Below are positions 23,550 through 63,717 of a stretch of DNA of 64,000 nucleotides, piece after piece. The stretch spans positions 1 to 64,000 of the IMG/VR virus record IMGVR_UViG_3300008113_000007, one strand, 5' to 3'. Both the position numbers and the translations under genes were made by a program. The notes under the pieces were generated by a model, which saw only the letters and a list, made by a program, of their open reading frames with translations, ran no database searches and was not told the DNA's origin. The stretch comes from a virus (taxonomy: Duplodnaviria; Heunggongvirae; Uroviricota; Caudoviricetes). The stretch's first letter is position 1; each line of letters opens with the position of its first letter.

Positions 23550-24482
23550 ATGAGCGTTATCAGTTATTTCGGTGGCAAGGCCGCCTTCCAATCATTCATA
23601 ACCCCAAATATTCCATTTGAGGAGTGCACAACCTACCTAGAGCCGTTCTCCGGGTCGTTCGCGATCTACCTCGATTCCAAGATGGAGTTCAACACCGTGG
23701 TCTTCAACGACCGTAACAGGCACCAGGCGAACCTGATGAAGTGTTGCTCGGAGCCAGAGAAGTTTCTTCCTGTTTTGAAGGCTCTTCTCGCACCAGGTAA
23801 CAGGCTGCACTGCACCGCGACGTCTGTGGACGACAAATGGGACTTCTATAAGGCAATCTATAGGGAGTACGTACAAAACGACTTCCTGGACGATATGAAC
23901 TTCGAGATTGGTGATATGGACAAGGCCGCGATGTACGCGTTCCTGATTACATCGTCTTTCTCTAGCGTCTACCCTCGCGGCGGTGGCTTCACAGGCTATA
24001 AGAAGAAGAAGGACAAGCTGAACCTCAGCATACTCATCAACAAGCTCGAGAAGAACAAATACACCGAGCGTCTGAAGAAAATCACAGAGTTCCACAACAT
24101 GGACTTCGAGGAGGTCATCCGCAAGTACGACTCTGAGGACACATACATCTACCTTGACCCGCCATACGCTCGTTTCAACGAGGTGAAGCAGGACGACGAC
24201 GGCAGGAGGCTTTTCTGGTACGGATGCGACGACGAGAACGCGTTCGGGGTTGCGTCTCACAGGAGGCTTCTCGAGCTTCTGAAGACTACTAAGTCGAGAT
24301 GGTCGTTGTCCTACTACTACTTCCCTTTGCTCGAGGAGATTCTTCCGAAGGACAAGTACATCTGGACGTCTAAGGAGTTCCACAGACCTTCTGCGGTCAT
24401 CAAGACTGAGGGCGTCGAGAAGGAGAAGGGCATCGAGCTGCTGATTATGAACTACGATCCTGAAACAGGAAAAAGAGTTTAG
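23550..24482 (+). CDS. dam: DNA N6-adenine methyltransferase (Dam/D12 class)
   Basis: N-terminal SAM-binding motif 'SYFGGKA' (Dam motif X/I region) and catalytic 'YLDPPYA' (DPPY). Confidence 0.8.
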   Translation: MSVISYFGGKAAFQSFITPNIPFEECTTYLEPFSGSFAIYLDSKMEFNTVVFNDRNRHQANLMKCCSEPEKFLPVLKALLAPGNRLHCTATSVDDKWDFYKAIYREYVQNDFLDDMNFEIGDMDKAAMYAFLITSSFSSVYPRGGGFTGYKKKKDKLNLSILINKLEKNKYTERLKKITEFHNMDFEEVIRKYDSEDTYIYLDPPYARFNEVKQDDDGRRLFWYGCDDENAFGVASHRRLLELLKTTKSRWSLSYYYFPLLEEILPKDKYIWTSKEFHRPSAVIKTEGVEKEKGIELLIMNYDPETGKRV

Positions 24483-24484
24483 TT

Positions 24485-24769
24485 ATGTTCGAGGGTAGGT
24501 TCGAGGAGTTGCACGAGTTGGGTTTCGAGGTACAGTTGCATTGGAACGACTGGTTCGGAATCTACGACATGAGAGTTCACGAAAAGGTTCTCAGCTGCAA
24601 CTACGAGGACATAGGAATACCCTACACGAAGATGGTCGAGGAGTGCCTCGAGATGTTCGACGACTGGTACGAGCAGTCGACCAATCTGCCCGACGACGTT
24701 TCGTGGGAGTTCATCGGCGACATAACAAAGCGTGTCCGCCGGAATATGGGCATAGACAAAATCTTGTGA
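24485..24769 (+). CDS. hypothetical protein
   Basis: ORF followed by a strong terminator. Confidence 0.4.
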   Translation: MFEGRFEELHELGFEVQLHWNDWFGIYDMRVHEKVLSCNYEDIGIPYTKMVEECLEMFDDWYEQSTNLPDDVSWEFIGDITKRVRRNMGIDKIL

Positions 24770-24800
24770 AAAGGCCGCGAATTTCGCGGCCTTTTTTTGT
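24770..24800 (+). terminator. rho-independent terminator (ggccgcgaa-t-ttcgcggcc plus a T-run)
   Basis: 9-bp GC-rich hairpin plus TTTTTTTG. Confidence 0.7.
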
Positions 24801-24824
24801 TTATATTTGTAGAAAATTGTTTTT

Positions 24825-27132: not shown

Positions 27133-27615
27133 TCACTTCACCTTGAAGGTCTTTTCTATCTTGTCCGCCACCGGGTTGAACAGCAGCAGGTTTCTCGTTC
27201 CTCCCTCGTAGACCCAGACGCCGTCGTAGTTGCCCTCGATCCAGGACATCAGCTGCTCGTCCGCCTCTATCGGCGACCAGCTGTCGCTGTGGTGGTATAG
27301 TTGGTCGGCGGTGCTCACCAGGAACTCCGGCTCGTCGGACGAGTAGTACGGATCCTCGAGAGGCCCGAACTCGTCTATTATTTTCTGGCAGTCCTCGATC
27401 TTGTTTGTGTCGAGAAGCCTCAGGTCCTTCTTCAGGTCGACCTTGTAGACGTGGTTTCCGTACATCTTCGCCTCGTTCGGGCTTGTCGAGAAGAACGTCC
27501 CGTTGGCCAGGTCTCCCCTTTTTCCGAACTCGTGCTCGTCGGGCGTGCCGTGGTATACGACCGCCGCGCCGTGCTCGTTGTACGTGAACTCGTCGAATAC
27601 CTTTACGTACCTCAT
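27133..27615 (-). CDS. putative ADP-ribosyltransferase of the H-Y-E (diphtheria-toxin/PARP-like) type, with a CTS-like N-terminus (MRYVKVFDEF)
   Basis: 'VVYHGTPDEH...GTFFSTSPNEAKMYG' parallels diphtheria toxin 'SYHGTKPGYV...GFYSTDNKYDAAGY' (His, then Y-rich STS-like segment); downstream acidic candidates 'VWVYEGG'/'IEADEQ'. Alternative: Tpt1/KptA-like 2'-phosphotransferase. Confidence 0.35.
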   Translation of the reverse strand: MRYVKVFDEFTYNEHGAAVVYHGTPDEHEFGKRGDLANGTFFSTSPNEAKMYGNHVYKVDLKKDLRLLDTNKIEDCQKIIDEFGPLEDPYYSSDEPEFLVSTADQLYHHSDSWSPIEADEQLMSWIEGNYDGVWVYEGGTRNLLLFNPVADKIEKTFKVK

Positions 27616-31988: not shown

Positions 31989-34900
31989 CTAAGTGTTGTT
32001 CGACATATATAGAAGTACCGTCTGTGTTATGAGGTTAGCTTCTACGAAGTTCGAGTTGTTTCCTGAGAACGTTCCGGTGAGTTCCATCGAGCCCTGTACG
32101 TGTAGTGTAGTTGCTGGTGATGCGGTTCCGATACCTACGTTTCCTGTCGAGTGTACTATGAAAGGTGTCGCGTCTGGATTGGCACTGTCTTCTACGACGA
32201 GTGCGTTTCCTGTTCCTGTCTGCGTTATCCTTACGAGATCTGTAGAGGACGCGCTTGAGACTACAAGGCCTGTCAGTGTGAGTGCACTTTGCCAGTTCGC
32301 GCTACCTATGTTGTCCTGTGAGACCAGGACTTTGTTCGTTCCTTCTGTTCCGTCTATTAGCCTGACGCTGTACTTCGTCTGGAATGAAGTGGTCTGCACG
32401 TTGAATATGCCGCCTATGTAGGTACCGATACCGAACAAGTCGTCCGACGAGTTCGCTACTATTCCCGCAACCGTTCCGCCGCCTGCGTCGGAAAACGCGT
32501 TGGTCACTATTCCGTAAGTGTCACCGTCCGAAGACGCAAACGCCTGTATCGCGGACGTAGCCCCGAGTGCGTACAATCCAGCGAGCGGCCCGTATGTCTC
32601 AATTCCGTAACTCGTCGATACAGAGTATATCCTGGCAGAGAGGCCGTCGTTTGTAGTTCCGGTCTTTAATCTTCCGTCGGCCGTTATGATGAAAGGCGTC
32701 GTATCTGGATTCGATGAGTCTTCCACGACGAGCGAGCTTCCTGTTCCGGTCTGAGTTATCCTGAGCAAGTCTTGCGAAGAAGAGCCTGATGCTATAATCA
32801 GTGGTACGGTCGTTGTGTTCGCTGTTGCTCGAAGTGTGTTTCCGTCGAAAGTGAGGTTTGCCTCGCCGTTGAGTCCGGTCGTCGTTCCGGTGGATGTTAC
32901 TACCCGGTTGTCACCAAAGTTCGTCACTGTGGTACCACCTCCTGAACTGGCTTGCCATGTCGCAACCCCGTTCGCGTCCGAAGTTAGAACATATCCTGCC
33001 TGCTGTGTTCCGTCGACTATCCTTACTGCACCACTCGTCGTTGAGAAGACATGAAGTCCGGTCGAAGGCGATGCCGTTCCCACACCGACGTTTCCTGCCG
33101 CAGTTATTATGAAAGGCGTTACATCAGGGTTCGCACTATCCTCAACAACAAGCGCGTTGCCCGTTCCTGTCTGCGTTATCCTAACTACGTCGCCAGTACT
33201 TGATGCCGAAGCTATTATTGATGTAACATATATGTTGCTGCTCCAGTTAGTGTCCCCACTCGCGTTGACAGATGTGAGAATTTTGTTTGTGTCCTGCGAT
33301 CCGTCTTGTAGTCTTAGAGCATACGCATTCTCTCCGAATCCGTCGGCGTAGAAGCTTCCTGCGATGTATGTGTTTCCGTTACTAGGCGTGTCTGACGGGT
33401 AGGCACTGGCTTTAATTCCGAAGTATGTGCCTACTGAGTCTCCGTACGCCAATGCCTCTACACCTGCAGCTTGTGAGCCTGGTGTGTTTGTCCTTCCGTA
33501 CAGACCGACTTTGGTTGCCGAGTCTCCGAAGATTCCACCATTAGTGGCGAGAACGTACGCTTTGTAACCAAATGCAGATGGTGTTGATAAACCTATACCA
33601 ACATTTCCGGCGTTGTCTATCACGAACGGAGAAGAGTCTGGATTTGTTGCATCCTCGACGACGAAGGCGTTTCCGGTACCGGTCTGTGTTATCCTGAGTA
33701 AGTCCTGTGTCGACGAACCTGATGCAAGTATCAATGGTACAGTCGTGGTGTTTGCTGTCAAACGTAGCGTGTTTCCGTCGAATGTTAAGTTACTTTCTAC
33801 CGTTGCGTTTGGTGCTGAGCCGTTCAAAGTTATGACACCATTGTCGGTTGTCCCTGTAAGGCTTAGTAATCCCGATGTTCCGGACGAACCTGATGTTCCT
33901 GAACTTCCACTACTTCCCCTGGTACCTGAGGAACCGGAAGAACCTGATGTGCCCGAAGATCCGGAGTTACCAGACGAACCGGAAGATCCTGTGCTACCTG
34001 AAGTTCCTGATGACCCAGAAGAACCAGTGTTGCCAGATGATCCTGAAGATCCGGTTGAACCACTTGATCCAGAAGTTCCGGAAGACCCTGAGCTTCCACT
34101 ACTACCGGTAGAGCCCGACGAGCCACTTGTTCCCGAGCTACCAGATGAACCACTTTGTCCGGATACATTGAAACTGACAAAGCACAAATCATTGTTTGTG
34201 AAGTTGGCGTCTGCTATAACGTTACTTATAGTTATTGTCCACCATCCGGTGTTATCGGTCGTTGCACTAAATTCATATGTGTGAAACCAAGTTAAGTCAC
34301 TTTGCTTAGTTATCTTTATGAAGCCTCTTCTACTTGCAGATCCGTAGTTTGCAAGTGAACTGAAGAAGTTTTGTAAGTCGTTATTACCATTTCTATCAAA
34401 TCTATCTATGTAAAGTGCAGTGGCACTACCCATAGTTAGGTTGTTTAGTCTGAAGAAACCTGATCCCGGATCCGACGCGGTTATTGTTGTACTGTAAGTA
34501 TACTCAAAACTCGCAGAGTCTATACCGTTCACACCTGATGTTCCTGTAGAACCACTACTTCCTGTGGATCCAGAAGTTCCGGAAGAACCTCTCGTTCCAG
34601 AAGAACCTGATGATCCAGAAGTTCCTGAAGACCCTGAACTTCCTGTAGAACCGCTCGAACCTGAACTTCCGGTTGAGCCCGATGTGCCACTTGAACCACT
34701 GCTTCCTGTAGAACCGCTTGAACCGGTGCTACCTGATGTTCCTGATGTTCCAGAAGACCCAGAAGACCCTGAACTTCCAGTTGAACCAGATGACCCAGAA
34801 GACCCTGATGTTCCCGAAGACCCCGAACTTCCGGTTGAACCGCTTGAACCGGAACTTCCGGTTGAACCCGATGTACCACTCGAACCACTACTTCCTGTAG

Positions 34901-37900
34901 AACCGCTTGAACCTGTGCTACCCGATGTTCCTGATGACCCAGATGACCCAGAACTTCCCGTTGAACCGGAACTACCCGATGTTCCGGAAGAACCTCTCGT
35001 TCCCGAAGACCCCGATGAACCAGAGCTACCGGACGAACCTGTAGATCCTGCACTACCCGATGTTCCTGAAGATCCACTACTTCCTGTAGAGCCACTTGAC
35101 CCAGACGAACCTGATGTTCCGCTACTGCCGGACGAACCAGTAGATCCACTTGAACCAGACGAACCTGATGTTCCGCTACTGCCGGATGTACCAGTGGATC
35201 CACTTGAACCAGAAGACCCCGATGTTCCACTACTACCGGATGTACCAGTAGAACCACTGCTCCCTGAAGATCCAGAAGACCCCGATGATCCTCTTGTACC
35301 AGAAGATCCAGAAGACCCTGATGTTCCACTTGAACCAGACGAACCCGATGAACCAGAAGTTCCAGAACTTCCGGATGAACCGGAAGACCCTGATGTTCCG
35401 GAAGAACCGCTCGAGCCCGAAGAACCATTTCCACCGGAAGCACCATCTAAGTTCGTTGTCCAGGATGAAAATGTGCCTGCACCATTTATTTCTGTTACAC
35501 TCAGTACCAAATTACCGGTTGAATCTGAGTAAGAAATCACATCACCGTGAAAGTGATTTGCGTTGGTGTTGGCAACAATCAAATGTTGTGCTATCGAATA
35601 CTCCAATCCAATACTTGTCGTCAGAGAATAGGTGTTTCCTATTATGAGACTGGATAAATTGATAGTATCTGTCGAACTCCCTATGTATTGTGCTGATATT
35701 CCAGATGTACCCGAAGAACCAGATGTTCCGGCACTACCTGAAGAACCAGCAGAGCCACTTGAACCGCGAGTTCCTGATGATCCACTTGAACCCGAAGTTC
35801 CAGACGATCCTGTTGAACCTGAAGTTCCTGCTGAACCTGAAGAACCAGACGATCCTGTAGAACCAGATGTTCCTGCTGAACCTGATGACCCAGACGAACC
35901 TCTTGTTCCGGATGAACCTGAACTTCCTGACGTTCCCGAAGACCCGGAAGAACCAGAAGTTCCTGATGAACCTGATGACCCAGACGAACCAGAAGTTCCT
36001 GCTGAGCCTGAAGAACCAGACGACCCGGTTGAACCAGAAGAACCAGATGTTCCTGTTGACCCTGTTGACCCAGACGACCCTGTTGATCCAGACGATCCAG
36101 AAGTTCCTGCTGAGCCTGTTGACCCAGACGACCCGGTTGAACCAGAAGAACCAGATGTTCCTGTTGACCCTGTTGACCCAGACGACCCTGTTGAACCTGA
36201 TGACCCAGATGTTCCTGATGAACCTGAAGAACCAGACGACCCGGTTGAACCTGATGACCCAGACGACCCTGTTGAACCAGAAGAACCTGAAGTTCCTGAT
36301 GACCCTGTTGAACCTGATGACCCAGACGACCCTGTTGAACCAGAAGAACCAGATGTTCCTGATGACCCTGTTGAACCAGAAGAACCTGAAGTTCCTGATG
36401 ACCCTGTTGAACCAGAAGAACCTGAAGTTCCTGATGACCCAGATGACCCAGACGACCCAGATGACCCAGATGTTCCTGTTGAACCTGATGACCCAGACGA
36501 CCCTGAAGAACCGGACGTTCCGGACGAACCCGCAGACCCGGAAGTTCCAGTTGAACCGGAAGAACCAGATGTACCTGAAGACCCTGAAGAACCAGAAGTT
36601 CCGGATGAACCGGAAGACCCAGATGTTCCTGACGATCCTGTTGATCCTGAAGTTCCAGATGAACCGGACGATCCAGATGTTCCTGACGATCCGGAAGAAC
36701 CAGAAGTTCCTGTAGACCCGGAAGATCCTGTTGAACCTGATGACCCGGAAGACCCGGTTGAACCTGAAGAACCAGAAGTTCCTGCTGACCCAGAAGAACC
36801 AGACGACCCAGAAGTTCCTGACGACCCCGATAAGCTTAAATCACTTCTATATGCAATATAACCGCTACCATCTCTAACTAATATATCCGTCTCGGTTGTA
36901 CCGGATGGTATATTTGGTGCAAATAATGAATTTGCTGCCACCTCAAACATCACAGAACCACCGTCTAAGTTAATTGGTTGTATTCCCAACCCACTTTTGA
37001 ATTGAAAAACGGTATTTGATGTTTCTGAACCTATTACAAATTTATTGGAAGTTGAACTACCATCTGTACCAAACACCGTCGTATATTCTCCGGTTTTTGC
37101 TAAAGTAAATACTATATTTTTGGTATTTGAACCAGATGTGAAATGATATGCCGTTTGTGATGGGCTATTGCTAGCGTCAAAGTTTTCATTTACTGAAAAT
37201 CCATTATCACCTTGAGGAAAAAATTGTTGAGTCCCTATAGAAAAACTATCATTGGCAATTACACTACCATATAGATTTTGCGTTCCTGAAGATGTTCCAA
37301 AATTGGAAGAACCAATCATTGTTAACAAACTACCATCAAATGTTAGATTACCTTCAGCAACCGCGGCGTTTGTAGTTCCATCCGATGTCAATAATCTGTT
37401 ATCAGACGGATTTGAAATTGTGTCAAATCCTGTTCCACTAGTTCCTGAAGAACCTGCTGACCCAGACGATCCGGACGAACCAGAACTTCCTTCGGTCCCT
37501 GATGTTCCGGATGAGCCTGAACTACCAGAAGAGCCAGAGCTTCCTTCGGTTCCTGATGTCCCTGATGAACCTGAGCTACCGGCGGAGCCTGAAGTACCAG
37601 AAGAACCGGATGAACCTGTAGAACCGGAAGTTCCTGATGAACCTGTGCTACCAGAAGATCCTGATGTTCCTGCAGAACCAGAACTTCCTTCGGTCCCTGA
37701 TGTTCCTGCAGAACCAGAGCTTCCTGACGTACCCGATGAGCCAGAAGATCCTGATGTTCCTGATGAACCGTCGCCCCCTGTTGTACCGTCAAGATTTATT
37801 GTGAAATCCGGTCCGTTTGGACTACCGTAGACGTACTTCACTATCACGTACATATCACCGGTCGCGGGATTGTAACTCTGTATTATTCCTTCCAAATAGT

Positions 37901-49504: not shown

Positions 49505-50287
49505 ATGGAAAACGATAAAGATGTATTTAGATTCGAGGATTTCGTCGATGTTGACAAGCTACAGAAGATGAAGTCAAACCTGTTGAGAGAAGGCATTCTC
49601 AGCGAGGACGAAAGAGATGACTTCGAGGACGAAGAGATTGACCCGTCTTTGAATCCGTATAACGTAGGTCGCGGAGACAGCGTCGACTACGATGCCGTCG
49701 CGGATGCTATGAGGCAGTCTTACGGCGACGCCGTTATGAACAACATCGAGGACTTCGAGAAGTCCAAGTCGTACACCGGAACCACAGACACCGCCGAGTA
49801 CGTCGACCAGTTCTCGACATACATGAACTTCTTCGGATCCGGGGAGACCGAGGATGACTACGAGGACGAGGAGCACTTCGACTTCCACAACGAGAGCAAC
49901 GAAGTCGAAGACTATTACAAGCTCTACAAGGACAAGGCTGAGGAGTTCACCTGCGACATCGCCATCGAAGGAGTTAAGCAAGAGGACACCGAGGTCAGGC
50001 TCATAGTCGAGAGCGATGAGTGGACGCTTATGTTCACAGGAGAGGTGAGGAAAGGCCAGTGCGTCATACCTATGAAGAAACTCAGCATACTGAACGAGGG
50101 AGCTACGGGTACCATCCGACTCGAGGTGAACGCTGACGGAACTCTTTTCACGCCGTGGGAAGACACTTTCATCGTGAAGGCTTCGAAGAAGGTCACTGTA
50201 CAGGTGAACGAGAGCAAGTCATCCAAAAACAAGAAACCCGCCACCAAAAAGGCGCCGGGTGTCAGTGTGAAGGTGAGAAGATCATAG
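49505..50287 (+). CDS. highly acidic hypothetical protein
   Basis: Asp/Glu-rich 260-aa ORF. Confidence 0.45.
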   Translation: MENDKDVFRFEDFVDVDKLQKMKSNLLREGILSEDERDDFEDEEIDPSLNPYNVGRGDSVDYDAVADAMRQSYGDAVMNNIEDFEKSKSYTGTTDTAEYVDQFSTYMNFFGSGETEDDYEDEEHFDFHNESNEVEDYYKLYKDKAEEFTCDIAIEGVKQEDTEVRLIVESDEWTLMFTGEVRKGQCVIPMKKLSILNEGATGTIRLEVNADGTLFTPWEDTFIVKASKKVTVQVNESKSSKNKKPATKKAPGVSVKVRRS

Positions 50288-52399
50288 GAAACTTACCCAA
50301 CCTTTCTCTACTATCTTAGAAATAACGTCGTTCGCGCGAATTGACTTCGTGCATTCGAACTGCCTGTCGGTTCCTTGGTGGTCCGGGCACCAGTTCCAAT
50401 CTCCAGGGTTGAACCTGTGCCTGTTGTAGCATCCGTTGCAAACGTCACCGTTGAAGATCCTTATGACGTCGTCGCCCTCGAACTCCGACTGCGGCGTGCT
50501 GAAGCCCGATATGAGTACGGTCCTTATTCCCAGTGTCCATGCAAGCCAGCTCAGACCCGATCCCAGTCCTATGAACATCTGGCACGAAAGTATCTCCGAC
50601 TTCAAGGTCTCGAAGTCACCCGGTGGCAGGACACTTGCGCCAGTAGGGTAGCTGTTGCCCATATACCCATCGCCTTCGTTAGACAGTACTATCACCTCGT
50701 ATCCTATCGATGTTAGGAAGTTTGTGACCTCCTGCCACCCGGTCGGGTTGTTCCAGTATTTTGGCTGCGCTGTAGAGTGCACTCCAATTCCTACCCTTTT
50801 CCTTTTCGCGAAGTCGACCGGCTTCAGCTTGGCACGCGTCTGTACGTAGTCCAGACCGAGAATGTCCGCCGCGGTCTGCGAGAGTGGCAGCTTTTTGAAC
50901 TCTCTCGGGTGGTATTGTGGGTGGTGAGAATCTCCTTCGAAGTACCAGCCTATATTGAACATAGCGTATATCCCGTGAACCACGGTACCCGGTGGTACGA
51001 ACTGTATCTCGGGATAGGATTCGACGAACTGCTCGTTCATGAAGGTTGAGCATACGACTTCGCAATTCCACTTCTTTCGAAAATTGTCTACCTGTGGGAA
51101 CCAGGCCATAGTGTCGCCCAGAGACTTAGAGTCTAAGCTGATTAGTACTCTTTTACCCGTAGGGTTGAATTCTTCCTCGAAAACTCGACCGTCGGATTCG
51201 CGGACGAACCTTATGTGCCAGTCTGCCGCGAACTTGAGAGTCGCCTTGGCCCAGCAGTCGTTGCCCACAATCGAGCTATAGTGCACGATACCGGTGCTTC
51301 TGTCTGTGAACGTGACGTGGAAGGTGTCGCCCGGTGCGTCGTGTATGTGCGCGTAAGGCCCGTCAACGAAGTTCACCGTGAAAGATGGGTCGATTTTCCT
51401 TATTTCCGAGTTTCTTTGAACGCCGTAGTAGAGGTTGCTCACGCCAAGCTCCGAGTGTGCGGTCAGTATCGCCTTAGCCGCCTGCTCTACGTCGTCCTCG
51501 AAGTAGGTGGCCACCCCGTCGTACTCGTTCTCGTATGTATCCAGGTTGCGTATCGCCAGAGGCAATCCGAAGCTTCTCGCCTCCTTCAGTGAAAGCGGGT
51601 TCAGCTCGAACAAAGAAGGAAATACGAAAACGTCTGCGGCCTTGTAGAACTCATCGACGTCGCTCCTCTCGCCGTGCCAGGTGCAGTTGTCGGGAAGGTT
51701 TTCCATTATCGGCCTCCAGTAGTCACTGAAGTTGTCTGCTTGGTTTCCAACGAAGTGGAACTCGACGTTCGGGTTGTAGTTCTTCATGAACTTGGCCACC
51801 TCGACGATGAACGACTGGTTCTTTCCCGGAGTGAAAAGACCTACGTGTAGGACGTGTATCGTTCCGTACTGGTCGTCGAAGCCGAGCCGGTTCTTGGCAG
51901 CGCCTTTGTCGTAGGTTATAGTCTCGACCGGGTATTCCCAGACGCTGCACATCTCGTTGCCGAACTCTGCAGCGAACCTGCGGTGGCTCCAGTTTGAAAC
52001 CAGCACGTACCTGTCTGGAATGTAACGTATCTTCGCCGGGTTCGTGTATGAAGAGTGCGTCGTTACGACAATGTCGTACGTCCTGTCGTCGTACCATACA
52101 GCGTTCAGTATGTCCAAGGGTACGAAAGTCTCCGGTATCTCCTGGAAGTGTATTATGTCCGGCTCGACGGAATCGATAAGCCTGAGGAACTCGTACTTTT
52201 CCTCGCCCAGCGTGACCAGTCGGTCACCGATCAAATTCTGTATCCTGTTTCTTTGCACGACGAGGACACCGCCGGTGATGTTGTCCCATTCCACGCACCA
52301 CACCTCGTACTCGCCCATCATCGACTCTATCTGCCTCACCGTGTACTGTGGCAGGCCGCCAGTCGAAAGGTGCGGCACGACGATTATTAACTTTTTCAT
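50282..52399 (-). CDS. bifunctional glycosyltransferase: N-terminal GT4 (GT-B) domain plus C-terminal GT9 heptosyltransferase-like domain. The probable true start is MKKLIIVV (approx. nt 52398); track ORF 50282..52609 has a ~70-aa upstream extension
   Basis: GT4 EX7E-type motif 'FPSLFELNPLSLKEARSFGLPL'; GT9-like N-terminal 'SLGDTMAW' and 'KYWNNPTGWQEVTNFLTSIGYEVIVLS' (compare RfaF/RfaC); Cys-rich 'CNGCYNRHRFNPGDWNWCPDH' reminiscent of adhesin heptosyltransferases. The upstream 70 aa are low-complexity and precede an in-frame ATG with a TATATATA box. Confidence 0.65.
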   Translation of the reverse strand: MKKLIIVVPHLSTGGLPQYTVRQIESMMGEYEVWCVEWDNITGGVLVVQRNRIQNLIGDRLVTLGEEKYEFLRLIDSVEPDIIHFQEIPETFVPLDILNAVWYDDRTYDIVVTTHSSYTNPAKIRYIPDRYVLVSNWSHRRFAAEFGNEMCSVWEYPVETITYDKGAAKNRLGFDDQYGTIHVLHVGLFTPGKNQSFIVEVAKFMKNYNPNVEFHFVGNQADNFSDYWRPIMENLPDNCTWHGERSDVDEFYKAADVFVFPSLFELNPLSLKEARSFGLPLAIRNLDTYENEYDGVATYFEDDVEQAAKAILTAHSELGVSNLYYGVQRNSEIRKIDPSFTVNFVDGPYAHIHDAPGDTFHVTFTDRSTGIVHYSSIVGNDCWAKATLKFAADWHIRFVRESDGRVFEEEFNPTGKRVLISLDSKSLGDTMAWFPQVDNFRKKWNCEVVCSTFMNEQFVESYPEIQFVPPGTVVHGIYAMFNIGWYFEGDSHHPQYHPREFKKLPLSQTAADILGLDYVQTRAKLKPVDFAKRKRVGIGVHSTAQPKYWNNPTGWQEVTNFLTSIGYEVIVLSNEGDGYMGNSYPTGASVLPPGDFETLKSEILSCQMFIGLGSGLSWLAWTLGIRTVLISGFSTPQSEFEGDDVIRIFNGDVCNGCYNRHRFNPGDWNWCPDHQGTDRQFECTKSIRANDVISKIVEKGWVSFL

Positions 52400-52426
52400 A
52401 ACGATTATACTAAACCAAATGCCACT

Positions 52427-52440
52427 GGTTTTTATATATA
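52427..52440. promoter_or_regulatory. divergent TTTTATATATAATG box between the GT gene (minus) and the 52470 gene (plus)
   Basis: Palindromic TATATATA core can serve both strands. Confidence 0.35.
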
Positions 52441-52469
52441 ATGACGATTGATAAAAAACGAGAATCAAC

Positions 52470-53798
52470 ATGGCGAAACTAATAACACTTAACGACAACG
52501 AGGGATCCGAATTCCTGAACTCACTGCTCAGGGATGAGCTCATAGTAATAGAGGACGTGCAGGGTAGCAAGATCTGGATCAACTGGGACGGGAAAGACTT
52601 CGTCATCAAACCGAAGTCGATAAGCAGCGAGCCTATAAACCTGGTCGACCTGGCGATGCAGAACTTCTACAACGCCGCGTTCGACTATATGAGGTCTCTC
52701 GACAACAGGGTCAAGTCCCTGCTGAACAAAAAGTGGTGGTTTTGCTTCGAGTACTTCCCCGACAGCCAGCCGGCCAACATCGAGTACGACCGTATGCCGA
52801 AGAACGGCCTGGTGCTTACTTCGATATACAAGGGTGGCAAGTACGAGTTCAACGTAGAGGAGCTCGACGAGTACAGCAGGCTGCTCGATGTCGAGATGAT
52901 ACCCGTGATATTCCAGGGTAAGCTGACTGAACGCATGATAGAGGCGATAAAGTACTTCCTGAACACAAGCGAGGACGACCTCGAATACGTCTTCGGCGAG
53001 AAGAACTTCTCGTTCTTCTTCTACAAGATACTCAACCCGACGATAGACTCGTCTTTCCTTATGGACGACTCTTTCCAGGCCAACCTCGAGAAGCTCATAT
53101 TCAGGCTAGGCGACGGCGACAAGTCGTTCGAGCTTCTTAACCCGCTCTACAAAAGAGTGAGCGACGGCAACTCCACAGACTTCGTGGAGATATACACACT
53201 CATACTTATAAACTTTATGAACTTCTGCCAGTCAGTCGTTGTCGAGGATATAAAGCTTCGCGGTAAAACGCGTGAAGAGGCTTACATCTACCTCATATCA
53301 AAGCTTTACAACCTTTATCTATCTGAGGTCAAGGAAGATTTGCTGGATTTCGAGTTCACAATCCCTGAGTTTTTCGACAAGGACAAGTTCAAGATAAACT
53401 CTGAGCTGATAGAAAACAAGACTACGAGATCGTACATCGCCGAGAGCGACAAGCTGGAGTACATATTCAAGGTCATACTCGGATCGTTCAACAAGCGTAA
53501 GAAGAAGCCAATCGGCATATTCACTGACAGCACAGTCAACCTTTTCAACCTTTTCGTTTCACGTATATCCGACCACGTCGAGACTTACCTCAACAGGACT
53601 AACGAGGTCGAGCTCACGCGTGCCGGCCTTCTCGACTTCGGCGACTTCTTCGACATCAAGTACGACACCGACGCCGAGGGCGAGGTCTATCCGGACGTAT
53701 ACTCAGAGATTGAGAAGGGTGCGGACGAGAAGTCGAAGAAGAAAGGCATGAAGGGAAAGGTTCCTACGACAACTGACCAAGAAAAACCAGCGATATAG
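52470..53798 (+). CDS. hypothetical protein (442 aa)
   Basis: ORF; weak, unconvincing resemblance of 'EDVQGSKIWI' to the RNA-ligase motif-I region, but the lysine is not conserved. Confidence 0.45.
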   Translation: MAKLITLNDNEGSEFLNSLLRDELIVIEDVQGSKIWINWDGKDFVIKPKSISSEPINLVDLAMQNFYNAAFDYMRSLDNRVKSLLNKKWWFCFEYFPDSQPANIEYDRMPKNGLVLTSIYKGGKYEFNVEELDEYSRLLDVEMIPVIFQGKLTERMIEAIKYFLNTSEDDLEYVFGEKNFSFFFYKILNPTIDSSFLMDDSFQANLEKLIFRLGDGDKSFELLNPLYKRVSDGNSTDFVEIYTLILINFMNFCQSVVVEDIKLRGKTREEAYIYLISKLYNLYLSEVKEDLLDFEFTIPEFFDKDKFKINSELIENKTTRSYIAESDKLEYIFKVILGSFNKRKKKPIGIFTDSTVNLFNLFVSRISDHVETYLNRTNEVELTRAGLLDFGDFFDIKYDTDAEGEVYPDVYSEIEKGADEKSKKKGMKGKVPTTTDQEKPAI

Positions 53799-56627: not shown

Positions 56628-57410
56628 TCAGAAGTTGTCGTATTTGTTCTTCATTCCAATCTTAGGAAGTGTGCCTACTATGTGTCTTTGTAGTTCATCC
56701 TTGTTCAGCGCTCCGAGTTTCTGTAGTAGTTGTAGGTTTCTCTGGTACCACTTCGTTTCCGGTGCCTCTCTCTCGTGGAATAGGTGGTAGCATTTGCCCG
56801 GCATTTCGTGCCAGGAAAGGAAGTTTTTCACCTTTACCGCCATGAAGTCGTCCTCGCCTCCCCAACCGACGAAGTCCTCGTTGTAGCCGCCGATTCTCAG
56901 AAAGGCATCCTTTCTGAATATTGTCATTCCTCCGCAGATGTTTATTTTCTGGTTGTCTGTCTCTCCTCTTCCCGGCCTTTGTATCTTTACCATTTCTTCC
57001 AGTTTCCCGAGAGACTCAGTCACGTTTAGGTCGACGACTGAGCTATAAGGACTTACGCACTCGTAGTTGGTCATAAGCCTCAGGCCTTCGATGAAGTTGA
57101 ACGGATCCATTATGAGATCGCAGTCCGTCAGAACTACGACGTCCGCCTTGGCGTGTTTTACCCCGACGTTGAAGCCCCACGATCTGTTGAACGGCATCTC
57201 TGTCTTAGTGAAGATGTGCTTCACCGGAAGGTTGAAGTGTCCTATCTTTGAGTGCTTGTCCTGTTCGACGAGTATTATCTCCGATTCCGAGAAAGATGTT
57301 GCCCACTCAAGAACTCTCTTGAGGTTCTGTAGCCTGACGAGGTCTTTGTGTCTGTAGAGTATGACGAAGGAAAACGAGAGGTTCTCTTTTATCTCATGAG
57401 TCTGAATCAT
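56628..57410 (-). CDS. GT2-family (GT-A fold) glycosyltransferase, beta-1,4-galactosyltransferase-like
   Basis: DXD 'LTDCDLI'; C-terminal 'GGYNEDFVGWGGEDDD' hallmark of GalT-like (Glyco_transf_7C-type) enzymes. Confidence 0.7.
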   Translation of the reverse strand: MIQTHEIKENLSFSFVILYRHKDLVRLQNLKRVLEWATSFSESEIILVEQDKHSKIGHFNLPVKHIFTKTEMPFNRSWGFNVGVKHAKADVVVLTDCDLIMDPFNFIEGLRLMTNYECVSPYSSVVDLNVTESLGKLEEMVKIQRPGRGETDNQKINICGGMTIFRKDAFLRIGGYNEDFVGWGGEDDFMAVKVKNFLSWHEMPGKCYHLFHEREAPETKWYQRNLQLLQKLGALNKDELQRHIVGTLPKIGMKNKYDNF

Positions 57411-58025: not shown

Positions 58026-58028
58026 AAA

Positions 58029-58053
58029 AAGAGGCAAATCGCCTCTTTTTTTA
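58029..58053. terminator. bidirectional terminator (agaggc-aaat-cgcctct plus a T-run, A-run upstream)
   Basis: Hairpin between convergent genes. Confidence 0.6.
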
Positions 58054-58710
58054 TTTCAGTTGAATCATATATGGTTCATCGAGCCATCCGTCGATTTGAT
58101 CTTTCTGTATCAGGTTGAGATGGGAAATTCTGTCTGCGTCGAATTTTGAAAACTCGAAGAACGGGTTGGTCATCTCGATGGCATCTCTCTTCATTGGTCT
58201 CATAACACCACAACCGAAGTCGGTATCGACGACACACATCATCATTTCTGTGTTTTGGCAAACATTTTTGTAAACGGCTTTCCATACGGTTCCAGTCCAT
58301 TCGTTCCTTGCTACAGTGTGGTGGTCTGCCTGTGCTGCGCGTGTGTGGTACTCTGTTGGTGGGTTGCAGTCGTGTAGTACGATTGTGCCGTTTTCCGAAA
58401 GATGTCTCATTGAGTTTATTATATCTTTCTCGACCTGTTCACACGTGTGCAGCCCGTCGATGAAAATTATGTCCCATTTGTAGTCCGCTTGTAGATCCAA
58501 CTCATTGCTCTCGAGAAGTTCGAAGAACTTGTCGGATTCGAATTTGTAAGTTGCCATATTCCACGGGTTCTCATAACCTGGATCTACAGAATGCTTAGTT
58601 GAACACTTTATGTGATCAAAACAATAAGTTGGATGAAACAGTCCTATCTCGAGGTATTTGCTGTAACCGTATTTCTCAACCGCCTTGTTAATAATGTCCT
58701 TTCTCTCCAT
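58051..58710 (-). CDS. class I SAM-dependent methyltransferase (Methyltransf_24 / CmcI-like O-methyltransferase)
   Basis: 'YLEIGLFHPT' motif I; 'WDIIFIDGLH' typical of the DxxFIDadH block of this family. Confidence 0.55.
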   Translation of the reverse strand: MERKDIINKAVEKYGYSKYLEIGLFHPTYCFDHIKCSTKHSVDPGYENPWNMATYKFESDKFFELLESNELDLQADYKWDIIFIDGLHTCEQVEKDIINSMRHLSENGTIVLHDCNPPTEYHTRAAQADHHTVARNEWTGTVWKAVYKNVCQNTEMMMCVVDTDFGCGVMRPMKRDAIEMTNPFFEFSKFDADRISHLNLIQKDQIDGWLDEPYMIQLK

Positions 58711-58975: not shown

Positions 58976-59509
58976 TTACATCCTGTGTTCGTAAATATCA
59001 AAAACCTTTCTGAAGTCCTCCGAGCAGAGTAGCGGTACTATCTCGTTTATCTGTGCGTCCTCTAAATCCCACCACTTTAGTCTCAGTAAGGCATCTATCG
59101 TCTCATCGTCGAACCGCTTCTTTATGACTCTCGCCGGGTTTCCACCTACGATTGTGTATGGTTCTACGTCTTTCACGACGTGTGCTCCGTTGGCTAGTAC
59201 AGCGCCGTCGCCAACCGTTACTCCCGACATAATCGTGACGTCGTTACCTATCCAGACGTCGTTTCCGATCACGACGTCGCCCTTTGTGGCAGGATGGCCC
59301 TTCCCATCGAATTTGTTGAAAGTGTCAGTAAATATGTGTCCGAATGGATAAGTGGTTCCCCAGTGTGTGTTGTGGTTCCCACCAAGCATTATAGTTATGT
59401 TGTTGGCGATCGAGCAAAACGATCCTATTTCGAGCTTGACACCTTCCTGCCAGAACAGCGCCCTTATGTTTTCCACACCGTACGTGTGCCTTCCTATTCT
59501 GTAAGCCAT
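58976..59509 (-). CDS. hexapeptide-repeat (LbH) acetyltransferase, xenobiotic acetyltransferase (XAT/Vat/CatB-like) family
   Basis: Hexapeptide repeats '[34 protein letters not shown]', '[14 protein letters not shown]', C-terminal 'WWDL'. Confidence 0.75.
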
Positions 59510-59558: not shown

Positions 59559-60026
59559 ATGTTTTCACTTTTTACGCTAATAATTTCGATATTGAGCTTC
59601 GTCGGGCTGGTATACTTCGTGTACAAGTTCGTCAAGTCATCACAGAGTCGGACATCTATCGAGTACAGGCTAGGTATCGGCCACCTCTGCTACTCGTGCA
59701 AGGCCGTCACAAGTAAGGCCGACTTCGACTGGGACATCAAGGCGAAGATGGACAAGCACTGCCTCTGCAAGATCTGCAAGAGGAACGAGGACATAGACAC
59801 ACTCACCGGCAAGTACTGGACGATGCTAGTGAACCGCTTAAAGTTCATACTCATAAAGCACTACCTGGGGTTCAGCATAGTACACTTCTCGATAATGGTC
59901 GCGCTCTGTGCGATTGGTATTACCATGAGCATAGGGTTTCTTTCGACGATCGTGAACGTGGCCAACTGCGGCTACTCTTATGTTAACTACAGGAGACTGT
60001 TATTATTGACTGAAAAGAATGGATGA
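59559..60026 (+). CDS. membrane protein with Cys-rich loop, hypothetical
   Basis: Two hydrophobic helices flanking 'CYSCKAV...CLCKICKRNE'. Confidence 0.4.
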   Translation: MFSLFTLIISILSFVGLVYFVYKFVKSSQSRTSIEYRLGIGHLCYSCKAVTSKADFDWDIKAKMDKHCLCKICKRNEDIDTLTGKYWTMLVNRLKFILIKHYLGFSIVHFSIMVALCAIGITMSIGFLSTIVNVANCGYSYVNYRRLLLLTEKNG

Positions 60027-60372
60027 TTTTTTCGACAGCTTCAAGAGGCCGGAGAAGAAGCACGACCACAAGGTAAGAGTGGTGCACTTCAAGAAGGAGC
60101 CATACGACATCTACATCGGCAGGCTTCCTGGTGGTCAGCACAACAAATGGGCCTACCCTAAGGAGCTGAGGAACAGCTTTCCTGAAGGAACGCCGAGAAA
60201 GGAGATAATAGCGGCCTACGAGGAGTACCTGCTGTCGAACGAGGAGCTTATGGCCTCGCTATGCGAGCTGAAGGACAAGGTTCTCGGTTGCTGGTGCAAG
60301 AACGAGGGAGGCGGCGGAAAGTCCTGCCACGGAGACATACTTGTAAAATGGGTAAAGAAGAAATGCAACTGA
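60019..60372 (+). CDS. DUF4326-family protein
   Basis: 'VVHFKKEPYDIYIGR' N-terminus and 'CHGDILVKW' C-terminal block characteristic of DUF4326. Confidence 0.55.
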   Translation: MDDFFDSFKRPEKKHDHKVRVVHFKKEPYDIYIGRLPGGQHNKWAYPKELRNSFPEGTPRKEIIAAYEEYLLSNEELMASLCELKDKVLGCWCKNEGGGGKSCHGDILVKWVKKKCN

Positions 60373-60394: not shown

Positions 60395-61123
60395 TTATTT
60401 ATTGAAGCTTTTGAATTTTCTTAGATGATTGAAAGACTCGTTCGCATCTCCTTCTCCCGGTATCTTGTCATAGAAATCTTTGCTGGCCTTGAAGTAGAAA
60501 CCGTTATTTTCGAATTCGTTTCTGTTCATCGGTATTTCTTTTCCGTCTATCTTCCCGTCTTTGAAGTCGGGATAAGTCGTCCATAGAGAAATAAGCCCTT
60601 TTCCGTTCACTTCTCCTATCTTGGATCCTACGATAGTAATGAAGTTGGTCTTTTCGGCTTCCTCTTCCTTGACCGCGATCGTTTCCGGAACCATCTGGCC
60701 TCTTACCGGCCTATCGTATGTATATGACTTCTTGTCGCTATCCTTCAGATTTCCGTCAAACCCTATTGTCACGCATCCTACGTGAGCGCCTGCGTCTACT
60801 CCGGTCCACGCGGTCCTGAAAGGAGGATTTTCGCCAACTTTTGGCTCGTATTTAGAAATAGCATACTCTATTCCTTTTCTCCAGCTGTCTGTGTAGTAGG
60901 ATCCAGGCGCGTCTCCTATTTCGGTGCTAGGTCCCATATGCGATTTGATGTGGTCAATAGTCTGCTGCGAAATATAGACCAACCATTTTTCGGAAGAAAT
61001 CAACTTTTCTTCTGTGACGTTTTTGTCGGAAATGTATTGGTTTTCTCCGACTATCTTTTTGACCTGTTCTATTTCGCTCGATTCGATGCTTTCGAACAAT
61101 CTAAATCTTTTGATCTTCTTCAT
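60395..61123 (-). CDS. hypothetical protein; the probable start 'MKKIKRFRLFESIE' (CTS-like) is internal to track ORF 60395..61237
   Basis: In-frame ATG at ~61123 yields 'KRFRLFES', similar to 'MRYLKTFES'; the upstream 38 aa overlap a promoter region. Confidence 0.4.
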   Translation of the reverse strand: MKKIKRFRLFESIESSEIEQVKKIVGENQYISDKNVTEEKLISSEKWLVYISQQTIDHIKSHMGPSTEIGDAPGSYYTDSWRKGIEYAISKYEPKVGENPPFRTAWTGVDAGAHVGCVTIGFDGNLKDSDKKSYTYDRPVRGQMVPETIAVKEEEAEKTNFITIVGSKIGEVNGKGLISLWTTYPDFKDGKIDGKEIPMNRNEFENNGFYFKASKDFYDKIPGEGDANESFNHLRKFKSFNK

Positions 61124-61236: not shown

Positions 61237-62022
61237 ATGCCTGAGTTAGCGGAACTAAAAATAATGGCCGACTTCGTCAATGCGAAGTCAAAAGGAAGAA
61301 CCTACAACGCGGCGTACGACGTCGCTAAGGGAAACATACCGTCCAAATCGGGCGTTCCAGATGGCGACTTCAACGTGAAGGCAGAATCCTTCGGTAAAGA
61401 GCTGGTTATCAGTCTATATCATGATGTTGCACAAACAGACGTGCACGTGTTCATGGGTATGTCTGGCAACTGGAAGTTCGTTCCGACCGAGAGCTGGAAC
61501 GACACCAGGTTCGTCCGTCTTCGTCTCGACACTACCGACGGACACTCATTGCTGCTCTATGGATCGTATATGGGTCCTAAGTACAAGATTGGACCTTTTG
61601 CGACCAAGCGCGGTCCCGATCCGACCAAGTACTTCGACAGGTTCAAAGAGAACGTTCTGGCCAATCTTGCCAAGAAGGCATTCGACAGACCGATATGTGA
61701 GGCGTTGCTCGAGCAGAAGTACTTCAACGGCATCGGAAACTACCTCAGATCGACCATCCTTTACTACCTCGGTGAGAATCCTTTCGAGAAGGCAAGGGAC
61801 GTCATACAGAGACGCCCTGACATACTCGAAATGTGCCGCGACGTTCCTCTTCAGGCCTACAGGTACAACGGCGGCCAGCTCAGGGACTGGCACAACCCGA
61901 ACGGCGGTGACGCGAAGGACTTCACCGACTGGGTCTTCTACCAGAAGGGCCTAGGTGTCAGGGACAACACAGGTAGGACATTCTGGTTCGATGAAAGGTG
62001 GATCGAACACTGCCCGTACTGA
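61237..62022 (+). CDS. Fpg/Nei-family DNA glycosylase (endonuclease VIII-like, H2TH). True start MPELAEL at 61237; track ORF 61147..62022 is extended upstream
   Basis: N-terminal 'MPELAEL' (catalytic Pro2-Glu3 as in Fpg 'MPELPEV'); H2TH motif 'QKYFNGIGNYLRSTILYYLGENP'; no C-terminal zinc finger recognised (NEIL-like). Confidence 0.65.
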   Translation: MPELAELKIMADFVNAKSKGRTYNAAYDVAKGNIPSKSGVPDGDFNVKAESFGKELVISLYHDVAQTDVHVFMGMSGNWKFVPTESWNDTRFVRLRLDTTDGHSLLLYGSYMGPKYKIGPFATKRGPDPTKYFDRFKENVLANLAKKAFDRPICEALLEQKYFNGIGNYLRSTILYYLGENPFEKARDVIQRRPDILEMCRDVPLQAYRYNGGQLRDWHNPNGGDAKDFTDWVFYQKGLGVRDNTGRTFWFDERWIEHCPY

Positions 62023-62054
62023 AAACTTAGTAGTGAGATCCTTTTATAATAGTC

Positions 62055-62609
62055 ATGCCAAACACACTTATAAGGCTTGACAGCAACAACTGGACGCGTT
62101 TCTACGCTGATTTCACAACGAGGCTAGAGTCCTCTGGATATCAATCCATTCTTCTTACGCACAAGGAGTTTTTGACCAGCCTCTATTTGTGCAGCTCGAA
62201 GTTTACGTTCCGTTTCACGCTTACCGCGGACATCGTAGAGGACTCGAAAAGGCTTGATCTCGTTCGTGAGCTCGTCGAGAAGGAGCCTAACACTATCGTC
62301 TTCGTCGATGGTATCACGGTACACCACCTCATACCAGACTACCCATTGGTGCATTACTTGGGTCTCATCAAAAGGATAAAGTGCGACGTCTTTGTCGATG
62401 ATGAAACCAATTTCGAACCGACCACCAAAGGATACTGCATCAACTACGACAAGCACATAAGGCACTACGAGGCAAGGTACGCCACGCTCCTGCCACGCTC
62501 CCCTTTGCGCAGCGAGCACAACGTGGAGGATCCAGATTTTGGTGTTATGAGTCTGGATGAGTGGTGCAAGGCATATGTAAGGAACAAGAAAATAAACGAG
62601 ATAATATGA
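62055..62609 (+). CDS. hypothetical protein
   Basis: ORF only. Confidence 0.4.
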   Translation: MPNTLIRLDSNNWTRFYADFTTRLESSGYQSILLTHKEFLTSLYLCSSKFTFRFTLTADIVEDSKRLDLVRELVEKEPNTIVFVDGITVHHLIPDYPLVHYLGLIKRIKCDVFVDDETNFEPTTKGYCINYDKHIRHYEARYATLLPRSPLRSEHNVEDPDFGVMSLDEWCKAYVRNKKINEII

Positions 62610-62890
62610 GCAAACTTAATGAGGGCCTCGACCCTAACAACCCAGCACACAAAGTCATCATCGACATCAACAACAGGAACGAGAAACTTTACGGTCCTTA
62701 CAATGAGAAGCACAAGTTGTTTCAGGCTTTCGTACCGAAGCCCAAACCTTACACAATACCATCCGAACACGTGGAGTGGGTAAGTAAGATGGTCGAGTTC
62801 GGTATTTACGAGATGGAGAAAGGTGGTAGAAAGGCACCCGACACTGTATACGAGGTACTGAACGGATTAAAAGAAGCGGCGTGGGTATGA
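62561..62890 (+). CDS. hypothetical protein
   Basis: ORF overlapping its neighbours at both ends. Confidence 0.35.
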   Translation: MVQGICKEQENKRDNMSKLNEGLDPNNPAHKVIIDINNRNEKLYGPYNEKHKLFQAFVPKPKPYTIPSEHVEWVSKMVEFGIYEMEKGGRKAPDTVYEVLNGLKEAAWV

Positions 62891-63717
62891 ACAAGGCGGA
62901 CGAATACTACCTCATAAATCTTCATAAGATACTTGAGGAAGGGTCCTGGGACGAGAACCCACGACCACGATGGAAGGACGGAAAGCCGGCACACACTAAG
63001 TTCATAACCGGCGTCTTCGAGGAGTACGACCTCGAGGCAGGAGAGTTTCCGCTTACGACGCTCAGGAACACCGCGATAAAAATCGGTATAAAGGAGATAC
63101 TCTGGATCTACCAGAGGCAGTCGAACTCGTTGGCCGAGGCCAGAGAGATGGGCATAAACTGGTGGGACGAGTGGGACATCGGCGACGGAACCATCGGTCA
63201 GAGGTACGGCGCCACCATAAGGAGGTACGGACTTATGAACAAGCTGCTCGACGGTCTGATCAAGGATCCTTTCGGACGCAGGCACATCATAGACATGTAC
63301 CAGTACGCGGACCTTGAGGAGACGTCTGGGCTTCACCCGTGTGCGTTTATGACGAAGTACTCCGTACGCAGGAAGAACGGCGATCTTTACCTCGACATGA
63401 CACTGGACCAGAGGTCGAACGACTACGTTATGGCCGGTTACATAAACAAGATACAGTACGTCGCGCTTCAGATGATGGTCGCGTCGCACTGTGGGTTCAA
63501 GGTCGGTAAGTTCTGCCATATGGTCCAGAACCTGCACGTCTACGACCGCCACTTCGACGCGGTGAAGGAGATAATAGACAGAGAGCCGCTGGAGCAGAGC
63601 CCACGCATTGCTTTGGAAACAAGTAAGAGCTTCTGGGATATAAACATCGACGACTTCAAAATCTACGACACCAACGGAATTCAAAAGCTTTCTGAAAAGC
63701 TTGAGATTGCAGTATAA
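62881..63717 (+). CDS. deoxynucleotide (dCMP/dUMP) hydroxymethylase of the thymidylate-synthase superfamily (T4 gp42-like)
   Basis: Catalytic Cys in 'LHPCAFMTKY' (T4 gp42 'DFMCTNTVQY'); 'DQRSNDYVMAGYIN' versus gp42 'MRSNDVVFGFRND' (thymidylate synthase instead has DMGLGVPFN); 'NLHVYDRHF' versus gp42 'SLHVYSRHF'. Confidence 0.7.
   Translation: MGMNKADEYYLINLHKILEEGSWDENPRPRWKDGKPAHTKFITGVFEEYDLEAGEFPLTTLRNTAIKIGIKEILWIYQRQSNSLAEAREMGINWWDEWDIGDGTIGQRYGATIRRYGLMNKLLDGLIKDPFGRRHIIDMYQYADLEETSGLHPCAFMTKYSVRRKNGDLYLDMTLDQRSNDYVMAGYINKIQYVALQMMVASHCGFKVGKFCHMVQNLHVYDRHFDAVKEIIDREPLEQSPRIALETSKSFWDINIDDFKIYDTNGIQKLSEKLEIAV

Follow-up and report, generated by a model that had tools for sequence, protein, structure and literature searches.

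A predicted NEIL1-type DNA glycosylase next to a probable thymidylate synthase gene in an uncultured T4-like huge phage

Does the phage DNA analyzed here encode a pathway for hypermodification of its own genome? The window, i.e. the whole analyzed stretch of 64,000 nucleotides (positions 1 to 64,000 of the IMG/VR virus record IMGVR_UViG_3300008113_000007), raises this question through three genes that a preliminary description had grouped as a DNA modification and repair module: a T4 gp42-type hydroxymethylase, a Dam methyltransferase and an Fpg/Nei glycosylase. All three open reading frames (ORFs) were found to exist at the coordinates given for them, and each belongs to the broad family named, as judged from Pfam models, motifs and relatives in the PDB. 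With the start of the last gene revised, they are:

23550..24482, + strand: orphan N6-adenine DNA methyltransferase of the D12 class ("Dam-like"; PF02086, 69.9 bits; DPPY motif).
61237..62022, + strand: predicted NEIL1-type Fpg/Nei glycosylase/lyase with a zincless finger, 261 aa (NEIL1 similarity, structure model, invariant residues).
62887..63717, + strand: putative ThyA-type thymidylate synthase, 276 aa (PF00303, NF002495, match to B. subtilis ThyA, residue table, tree).

It is likely that the three genes have housekeeping or auxiliary roles in a T4-like huge phage, without relation to one another, and do not constitute a DNA-hypermodification pathway. The thymidylate synthase (TS) and the methyltransferase are ordinary, and the notable item is the NEIL1-like glycosylase. 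The genes are not contiguous and do not make up a module. The methyltransferase gene is located 5 kb after the capsid gene, in the capsid (late) region, and the NEIL1-like/TS pair lies 37 kb away, with two giant collagen-repeat proteins, three glycine-rich paralogues and a glycan-type gene cluster encoded in between.

The glycosylase begins with MPELAEL at position 61237, which we take to be the start because no other start gives the N-terminal proline required by the Fpg/Nei family. Among solved structures the best relative was human NEIL1 (E = 1.1e-32), followed by E. coli Nei (E = 2.4e-9) and Fpg (E = 1e-4 or worse). The protein has the Pro2 nucleophile, Glu3 and Lys54 (in G53-K54-E55-L56), and P2, E3, K54, M75, N168 and R247 were invariant in 33 homologues; M75 is the equivalent of NEIL1 Met81 in the alignment. 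A CxxC...CxxC zinc-finger motif was absent, and only two cysteines are present in the last 62 residues. The sequence DNTGRTFWF aligns with DRHGRTIWF of the NEIL1 zincless finger, placing R247 at the position of NEIL1 Arg277, and the structure model has strands at residues 239-242 and 248-251, corresponding to the beta-hairpin of the zincless finger. The AlphaFold2 model had a pLDDT of 90.7, and the best 50 Foldseek matches to it in the PDB were all NEIL1 (E about 1e-21, TM-score 0.78-0.82). The Pfam H2TH model gave 27.6 bits, which is under its cut-off of 34.7, and the fold is supported by the structure match. The preliminary description of a NEIL-like Fpg/Nei glycosylase without an evident zinc finger was thereby supported, with no Cys4 motif and with human NEIL1 as the best relative.

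From its family, active-site residues and predicted fold, the protein is best read as a bifunctional glycosylase/lyase whose mechanism would, by homology, follow that of NEIL1. Pro2 would act as the Schiff-base nucleophile, Glu3 and Lys54 would take part in catalysis, and the reaction would proceed by beta,delta-elimination. The H2TH would bind DNA and the zincless finger would contribute its conserved Arg. The substrates would most likely be oxidised or ring-opened bases cleared from replicating phage DNA, so that the enzyme would serve the base excision repair of a very large genome.

The glycosylase had been called uncommon in phages, in agreement with only two weak matches among 50,697 deposited phage records. 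A metagenome protein database contained 1384 clusters (at 90% identity) matching it at E <= 1e-3. The best 120 of these were 58-100% identical to it and included genes on contigs of 286-656 kb. At 50% identity, 339 clusters scored below 1e-10. A relative was also carried by 53 IMG/VR viral contigs, some of up to 476 kb, where it was usually located just upstream of a TS gene. Two more distant short homologues were found in phage contexts, one adjoining a gene for the UvdE repair nuclease and the other on a contig with T4 gp13. Of the long homologues (>500 aa), the two that carry a name come from a crab and from Pelomyxa and are NEIL1-like proteins of eukaryotes, and in a rough neighbour-joining tree mostly long proteins, including these two, separated from the short ones. 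A set of 185,579 representative genomes of bacteria and archaea was scanned twice by a pattern-based method of limited sensitivity, with the protein itself and with the alignment of its family, and neither scan gave a relative. In the literature searched we found no description of Fpg, Nei or NEIL1 from phages of jumbo or huge size. The repair enzymes listed in a survey of 224 jumbo phages include EndoV and UvdE, and Fpg/Nei is not among them.

A eukaryote-style NEIL1 glycosylase is thus conserved in a clade of uncultured huge phages and is found in other large phages as well. The family as such is known; this phage member of it is genuine, appears to be undescribed and has a divergent recognition loop. 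These results suggest that phages with very large genomes encode a repair of oxidised bases of their own, tied to the replication module, and the compact homologues, which have no C-terminal tail, may suit biochemistry.

The loop and the gene neighbourhood leave room for a different main role of the enzyme. In about 25 of 56 loci a DUF4326 gene precedes the NEIL1-like gene at a distance of 0-2.8 kb, and one is present in the window:

60019..60372, + strand: DUF4326 protein (PF14216, 56.2 bits).

DUF4326 is highly conserved, with 72-85% identity in most loci, and in many related contigs (L007, L017, L022 and L026 in our numbering, among others) its gene directly precedes the NEIL1-like gene. 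In the window a reverse-strand ORF of 241 aa (60395-61120) is inserted between the two. On a related 587-kb contig (L006), a PNKP-like kinase/phosphatase, a dihydrofolate reductase (DHFR), an RNA ligase and tRNA synthetase fragments are encoded within 10 kb of the NEIL1-like gene (at 1-2471 and 15897-16403).

The enzyme could accordingly serve mainly in conflict or counter-defence, e.g. by excising bases altered by a defence system or by attacking host DNA, maybe together with DUF4326. We regard this as improbable. It would fit the replacement of the lesion-recognition loop by a phage-specific invariant motif (GGQLxDWxNP where NEIL1 has GG(K/R)GYG) and the apparent restriction of the family to phages, given the bacterial and archaeal scans. 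A connection of DUF4326 with NAD/ADP-ribose conflict systems has been described (PMC9503650, PMC7824862), and the window also encodes a NADAR protein and an ADP-ribosyltransferase (ART)-like protein. However, the gene keeps a conserved place next to TS at the head of a replication and nucleotide-metabolism block, the distant homologue beside UvdE fits ordinary repair, and all catalytic residues match those of a classical oxidised-base glycosylase. Repair of oxidised bases is therefore preferred.

DUF4326 has been predicted to be an enzyme of the rhodanese-phosphatase superfamily (PMC9503650). We speculate that it acts as a 3'-phosphatase partner after beta,delta-elimination. It is conceivable, if somewhat doubtful, that the short NEIL1-type glycosylases (about 250-290 aa, with a zincless finger and GGQLxDWxNP) represent a phage-specific radiation, widespread in huge and T4-like phages, which, together with a DUF4326 3'-phosphatase, forms a repair route independent of AP endonuclease and maybe directed at a lesion or modification other than those of NEIL1. 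If true, such a radiation would bear on the origin of animal NEIL1.

The TS homologue was the basis for the proposed hypermodification. The gene had been placed at 62881..63717; the ORF is real, but the GTG at 62881 lies two codons upstream of the likely true start, an ATG at 62887 that overlaps the end of the preceding ORF as ATGA. In a JGI contig that carries the same sequence, the gene was independently called with 276 aa as well. The protein scored 208.5 bits against PF00303 (Thymidylat_synt; cut-off 24.3). Its best NCBIfam model was the thymidylate synthase equivalog NF002495, and its best solved structure was B. subtilis ThyA (PDB 1B02/1BKO; E = 1.6e-39).

With E. coli numbering, the TS residues E58, Y94, R126/R127, C146, R166, S167, D169, N177, H207 and Y209 were all kept. 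Both W80 and W83 (in WWDEW) are present, residue 147 is Ala, and the C-terminal ...LEIAV aligns with ...APVAI of E. coli ThyA and is thus a hydrophobic tail of the TS type. TS enzymes are marked by W80/W83 and by a short hydrophobic C-terminal tail, which closes the active site for hydride transfer.

We compared the protein with T4 gp42 and with four dUMP hydroxymethylases, i.e. SPO1 gp29 and its homologues from Det7, PhiW-14 and Pseudomonas phage Max, the latter three of which we take to represent the ViI-like, PhiW-14 and M6-like phages. ViI, PhiW-14 and M6 are named as phages with hypermodifications derived from hydroxymethyluracil (hmU) (PMC8989533). In blastp the window TS gave 140 bits with B. 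subtilis ThyA and 93 bits with E. coli ThyA, against 29-47 bits with the four dUMP hydroxymethylases and 34 bits with gp42. In a neighbour-joining tree it was placed in the clade of B. subtilis and E. coli ThyA, and the four dUMP hydroxymethylases formed a clade of their own. These four were found to lack W80, to have Asn147 and Phe or Tyr at position 83, and to be 348-383 aa long.

The residue that sets pyrimidine specificity is Asn177 in E. coli TS and Asp179 in gp42 (PMC8670742). The window TS has Asn at this position (GYINK) where gp42 has Asp (FRND), which excludes a dCMP enzyme. The RSND block, on which, with a Cys motif, the assignment to the gp42 type had been founded, is indeed present and common to T4 gp42. 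Its diagnostic value did not hold up, since RSND is found in SPO1 gp29 and also in the genuine ThyA of B. subtilis (1B02, ARSNDMALG). RSND therefore cannot separate hydroxymethylases from TS; Asn or Asp at position 177, W80/W83, the C-terminal tail and clade membership can.

The genomic context was analyzed in the 53 IMG/VR loci. A TS of the window type was located 0.2-2.4 kb downstream of the NEIL1-like gene in about 24 of them, while about 22 had a canonical ThyA in the same slot (up to 41% identity to E. coli ThyA; about 350-365 aa with a large insertion). No gp29- or gp42-like gene occupied the slot after the glycosylase in any of the 53 loci. That two non-orthologous types of TS alternate in one slot argues for the same function. 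The closest cultured homologue, from Bacillus phage Sophrita (56% identity), has a DHFR gene two genes downstream and also a thymidine kinase gene.

In the window, three further ORFs belong to the run that contains the NEIL1-like and TS genes:

62055..62609, + strand: ORF of 184 aa between the NEIL1-like gene and TS, apparently in the same operon; overlaps the next ORF by 4 bp.
62606..62890, + strand: ORF of 94 aa with ATGA overlaps on both sides.
63736..64000, + strand: 5' part of an acidic conserved ORF of 167 aa that follows TS in most related loci; not DHFR.

The gaps between these co-directional genes are 32, -4, -4 and 18 bp, and the run leads into the replication genes; in 10 kb more of the contig, downstream of the window, a family-B DNA polymerase, an XPD-like helicase, DnaB and the large subunit of ribonucleotide reductase (RNR) are encoded. 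Because the genes are co-directional, separated by small gaps and followed by replication genes, the run from the NEIL1-like gene to the 167-aa ORF is apparently an early or middle operon; the gene order and its conservation are observed, and we infer co-transcription from them. The TS would methylate dUMP to dTMP, and its gene heads a block for replication and nucleotide supply with the order TS, 167-aa ORF, family-B DNA polymerase, XPD-like helicase, DnaB and RNR large subunit. The ORFs around the NEIL1-like and TS genes (184, 94, 241, 155, 411, 442, 179, 208 and 181 aa) gave no informative match to Pfam, NCBIfam or PHROG.

In a third group of loci DHFR was located 3-6 kb from the NEIL1-like gene, and the 6 kb taken on each side contained no TS. 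When IMG/VR was scanned with a phage DHFR, only a sub-group in which DHFR lies close to the NEIL1-like gene, with no TS adjoining it, was found again. The 167-aa ORF was considered as a divergent DHFR and rejected (hhalign probability of 0.1% against the phage DHFR family).

Some observations weigh against reading these genes as ordinary and unrelated. The TS stays 4 bits under the trusted cut-off of NF002495 (323.2 vs 327). Its subfamily deviates from canonical TS at the folate site (G173A, P175Y, F176I and D205N-T206L), and the N-L at positions 205/206 looks like that of hydroxymethylases. No DHFR was found in the available sequence of the phage. The 64 kb of the window and the 10 kb downstream cover a part of a genome that is probably >500 kb, so modification genes could lie elsewhere. 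Finally, the altered lesion-recognition loop of the glycosylase sets it apart from NEIL1, and the void-filling Arg118 and Phe120 of NEIL1 are not conserved, the 118-120 region being Y-M-G in the alignment. The folate-site departures (A173, Y175, I176, N205-L206) are the reason for leaving a slight probability to hydroxymethylase activity.

Glycosyltransferases, methyltransferases and a ligase resembling glutamine synthetase (GS) had been taken together as signs of a hypermodified genome. The genes concerned are:

6283..7341, - strand: GlnII-like glutamine synthetase, the GS-like ligase of the preliminary description (NF041605, 350.6 bits, cut-off 500; PF00120, PF03951).
50282..52606, - strand: two-domain glycosyltransferase, GT1 and GT9 (heptosyltransferase-like; PF13692, PF00534, PF01075), adjoining the collagen-like fibre genes.
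56628..57410, - strand: GT2/Glyco_transf_7C glycosyltransferase.
58051..58710, - strand: class I S-adenosylmethionine-dependent methyltransferase (Methyltransf_24; PF13578, 36.7 bits) of the glycan-type cluster.
58976..59509, - strand: hexapeptide-repeat acetyltransferase, Vat/CatB-like (NF000311, 164 bits, under the cut-off of 300).

Thymine exclusion and hypermodification are associated with a set of genes that comprises dTMPase/dTTPase, 5-hmU DNA kinase and aGPT-pyrophosphorylase (PMC8989533). Searches with Pfam, NCBIfam and PHROGs found no gene for 5-hmU kinase, aGPT-pyrophosphorylase, TET/JBP, dTMPase/dTTPase or a dCTPase-type enzyme among approximately 57 ORFs scanned in the window, and no thymine-exclusion or hypermodification gene was found in the 10 kb downstream of it. 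Elsewhere, amidoligase domains are found together with genes for thymidine hypermodification (PMC8989533). The GS-like gene of the window is, however, GlnII-like, lies 55 kb from the TS gene and falls outside the range 23550-63717. Since no enzyme that would supply hydroxymethyl-pyrimidines was found, it is not obvious where sugars could be attached to the DNA, and a protein or a surface glycan would be the more economical target. Genes for the glycosyltransferases, the O-methyltransferase-like protein and the acetyltransferase are located among the collagen-like fibre genes, and their products more plausibly build or decorate a glycan on virion or host surface structures. Hypermodification of the genome is not supported.

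As a side observation, the GlnII-type homologue is a possible auxiliary metabolic gene. The glycan-type cluster spans 50282-59509 and adjoins the fibre genes, with several ORFs of 180-440 aa interspersed.

Altogether, the proposal that the TS homologue functions as a hydroxymethylase like gp42 or gp29, forming hydroxymethyl-dCMP or hydroxymethyl-dUMP and, with the glycosyltransferases, methyltransferases and GS-like ligase, a restriction-resistant hypermodified DNA, is very unlikely to be right: it can draw on the shared RSND block, on the partly hydroxymethylase-like positions 205/206 and 175/176, and on the glycosyltransferase and amidoligase-like genes in the window, but it is opposed by Asn177, by W80/W83 and the C-terminal tail, by the TS clade and the blastp scores, by canonical ThyA in the same slot, by the DHFR and thymidine kinase genes that follow closely after the nearest cultured homologue, and by the lack of hallmark genes among the ORFs scanned. 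The protein encoded at 62887-63717 looks like an ordinary folate-dependent thymidylate synthase of the B. subtilis ThyA/thyP3 type, as judged from its sequence. This prevents a false annotation of hydroxymethylcytosine (hmC), hmU or hypermodified DNA in this lineage of huge phages.

The methyltransferase gene is directly preceded by a NADAR gene:

23007..23495, + strand: NADAR-domain protein (PF08719, 90.2 bits).

The DPPY motif of the methyltransferase (D203-P-P-Y206) was invariant, while motif I is FSGSF instead of FxGxG, a trait common to its relatives. The PDB search gave a single match (7M6B, E = 2.8e-5) and did not retrieve Dam from E. coli or T4. The earlier statement that Dam adds N6-methyladenine (m6A) stands as far as the D12 class of N6-adenine methyltransferases is concerned, but the label Dam was overstated, the score with the Dam family model TIGR00571 being 48.7 bits, far under its cut-off of 114.85, and the identity to E. 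coli Dam about 20%. It is plausible that the enzyme deposits m6A, and it would probably do so for self-protection or regulation. Copies with 62-63% identity were found at the same position in the uncultured phage genomes LR745206 and LR756502, and the pair with NADAR is kept in LR745206 (L068 in our numbering, 7531-8942). The sequence GATC occurs 245 times in the window, relative to 249.5 expected from composition and 304 from a Markov model; it is neither avoided nor enriched, and the count is uninformative for Dam specificity. For other tetranucleotide palindromes in the whole window, CTAG and CATG were found at about 0.47-0.49 of the Markov expectation, i.e. approximately two-fold depleted, and TTAA at 0.62. 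A weak ART-PolyVal ADP-ribosyltransferase-like ORF was seen at 27133-27615.

Among the proteins encoded in the window are a T4-type portal (PF07230), a prohead protease-like protein, a major capsid protein of the Gp23 type and a tail protein resembling gp15. The major capsid protein is 72% identical to those of LR745206 and LR756502 (634-642 kb) and 51% identical to those of genomes of 636-735 kb, and the Lak megaphages are more distant. The DNA of the window recurs on metagenome contigs from JGI and ENA of up to 118 kb. Among the 50,697 deposited phage records there was no close DNA relative, and the sole match was a chance-like one of 42 bp to ViI-like phages. Because its capsid relatives have genomes of 634-642 kb and no close DNA relative is deposited, the source of the window is an uncultured T4-like huge phage. 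Two very large genes lie between the methyltransferase gene and the glycan-type cluster:

31989..38003, - strand: giant collagen-repeat protein of 2004 aa, presumed fibre (PF01391, 11 stretches, 394 bits).
42114..47015, - strand: second giant collagen-repeat protein, 1633 aa, presumably a fibre (PF01391, 407.7 bits).

Three paralogous glycine-rich (Gly_rich_2) proteins, presumably also fibres, are encoded at 38586-41437 between the two collagen-repeat genes. A full-length RNase II/R homologue (12194-14092, - strand) with an RNB domain (333 bits) and CSD2 and S1 domains is encoded between the portal and prohead genes, and a protein with a TnsA-like endonuclease N-terminal domain (8133-8660, - strand) just upstream of the portal gene. 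An SPFH/Band-7 domain protein (21264-22208, + strand) is encoded in the capsid-proximal region. No tRNA genes were detected in the window, and a search for promoter and terminator patterns near the genes studied gave nothing useful.

Compared with known systems, the glycosylase is closest to human NEIL1 (1TDH, 5ITQ-5ITY, 6LW*), with 30-35% identity and a TM-score of about 0.8. The H2TH is nearly identical (AFDRPICEALLEQKYFNGIGNYLR in the phage protein and AFDRPICEALLDQRFFNGIGNYLR in NEIL1). It differs from NEIL1 in being only 261 aa, in having no disordered C-terminal tail, in the loop GGQLRDW and in being encoded by a bacteriophage. With E. coli Nei and Fpg it has the superfamily, the N-terminal catalytic Pro-Glu and the H2TH in common, but these enzymes have a Cys4 zinc finger and are much weaker matches than NEIL1.

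The methyltransferase shares the D12 class, DPPY and the motif order with Dam from E. coli and T4. It differs by an identity of about 20% to E. coli Dam, by Phe in place of the second Gly in motif I and by two insertions.

The TS resembles B. subtilis ThyA and thyP3 of phage phi3T (1B02, 1BKO) over its full length, with about 34% identity, and has in common with them DG.PAHT, RSND, a residue other than His after the catalytic Cys, W80/W83 and Asn177. It has MAGYIN where they have LGNPFN, and NLHVY where they have DCHVY. T4 gp42 shares the TS fold, the catalytic Cys and RSND, but is only about 21% identical and has Asp at the specificity position, Val83 and no closing tail at the C-terminus. 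Enzymes of the SPO1 gp29 type, including those of Det7 (ViI-like), PhiW-14 and Max, share the TS fold and Asn177, so that their substrate is dUMP; they differ from the window TS by the lack of W80, by Asn147, by a C-terminal extension of about 100 aa and by their separate clade.

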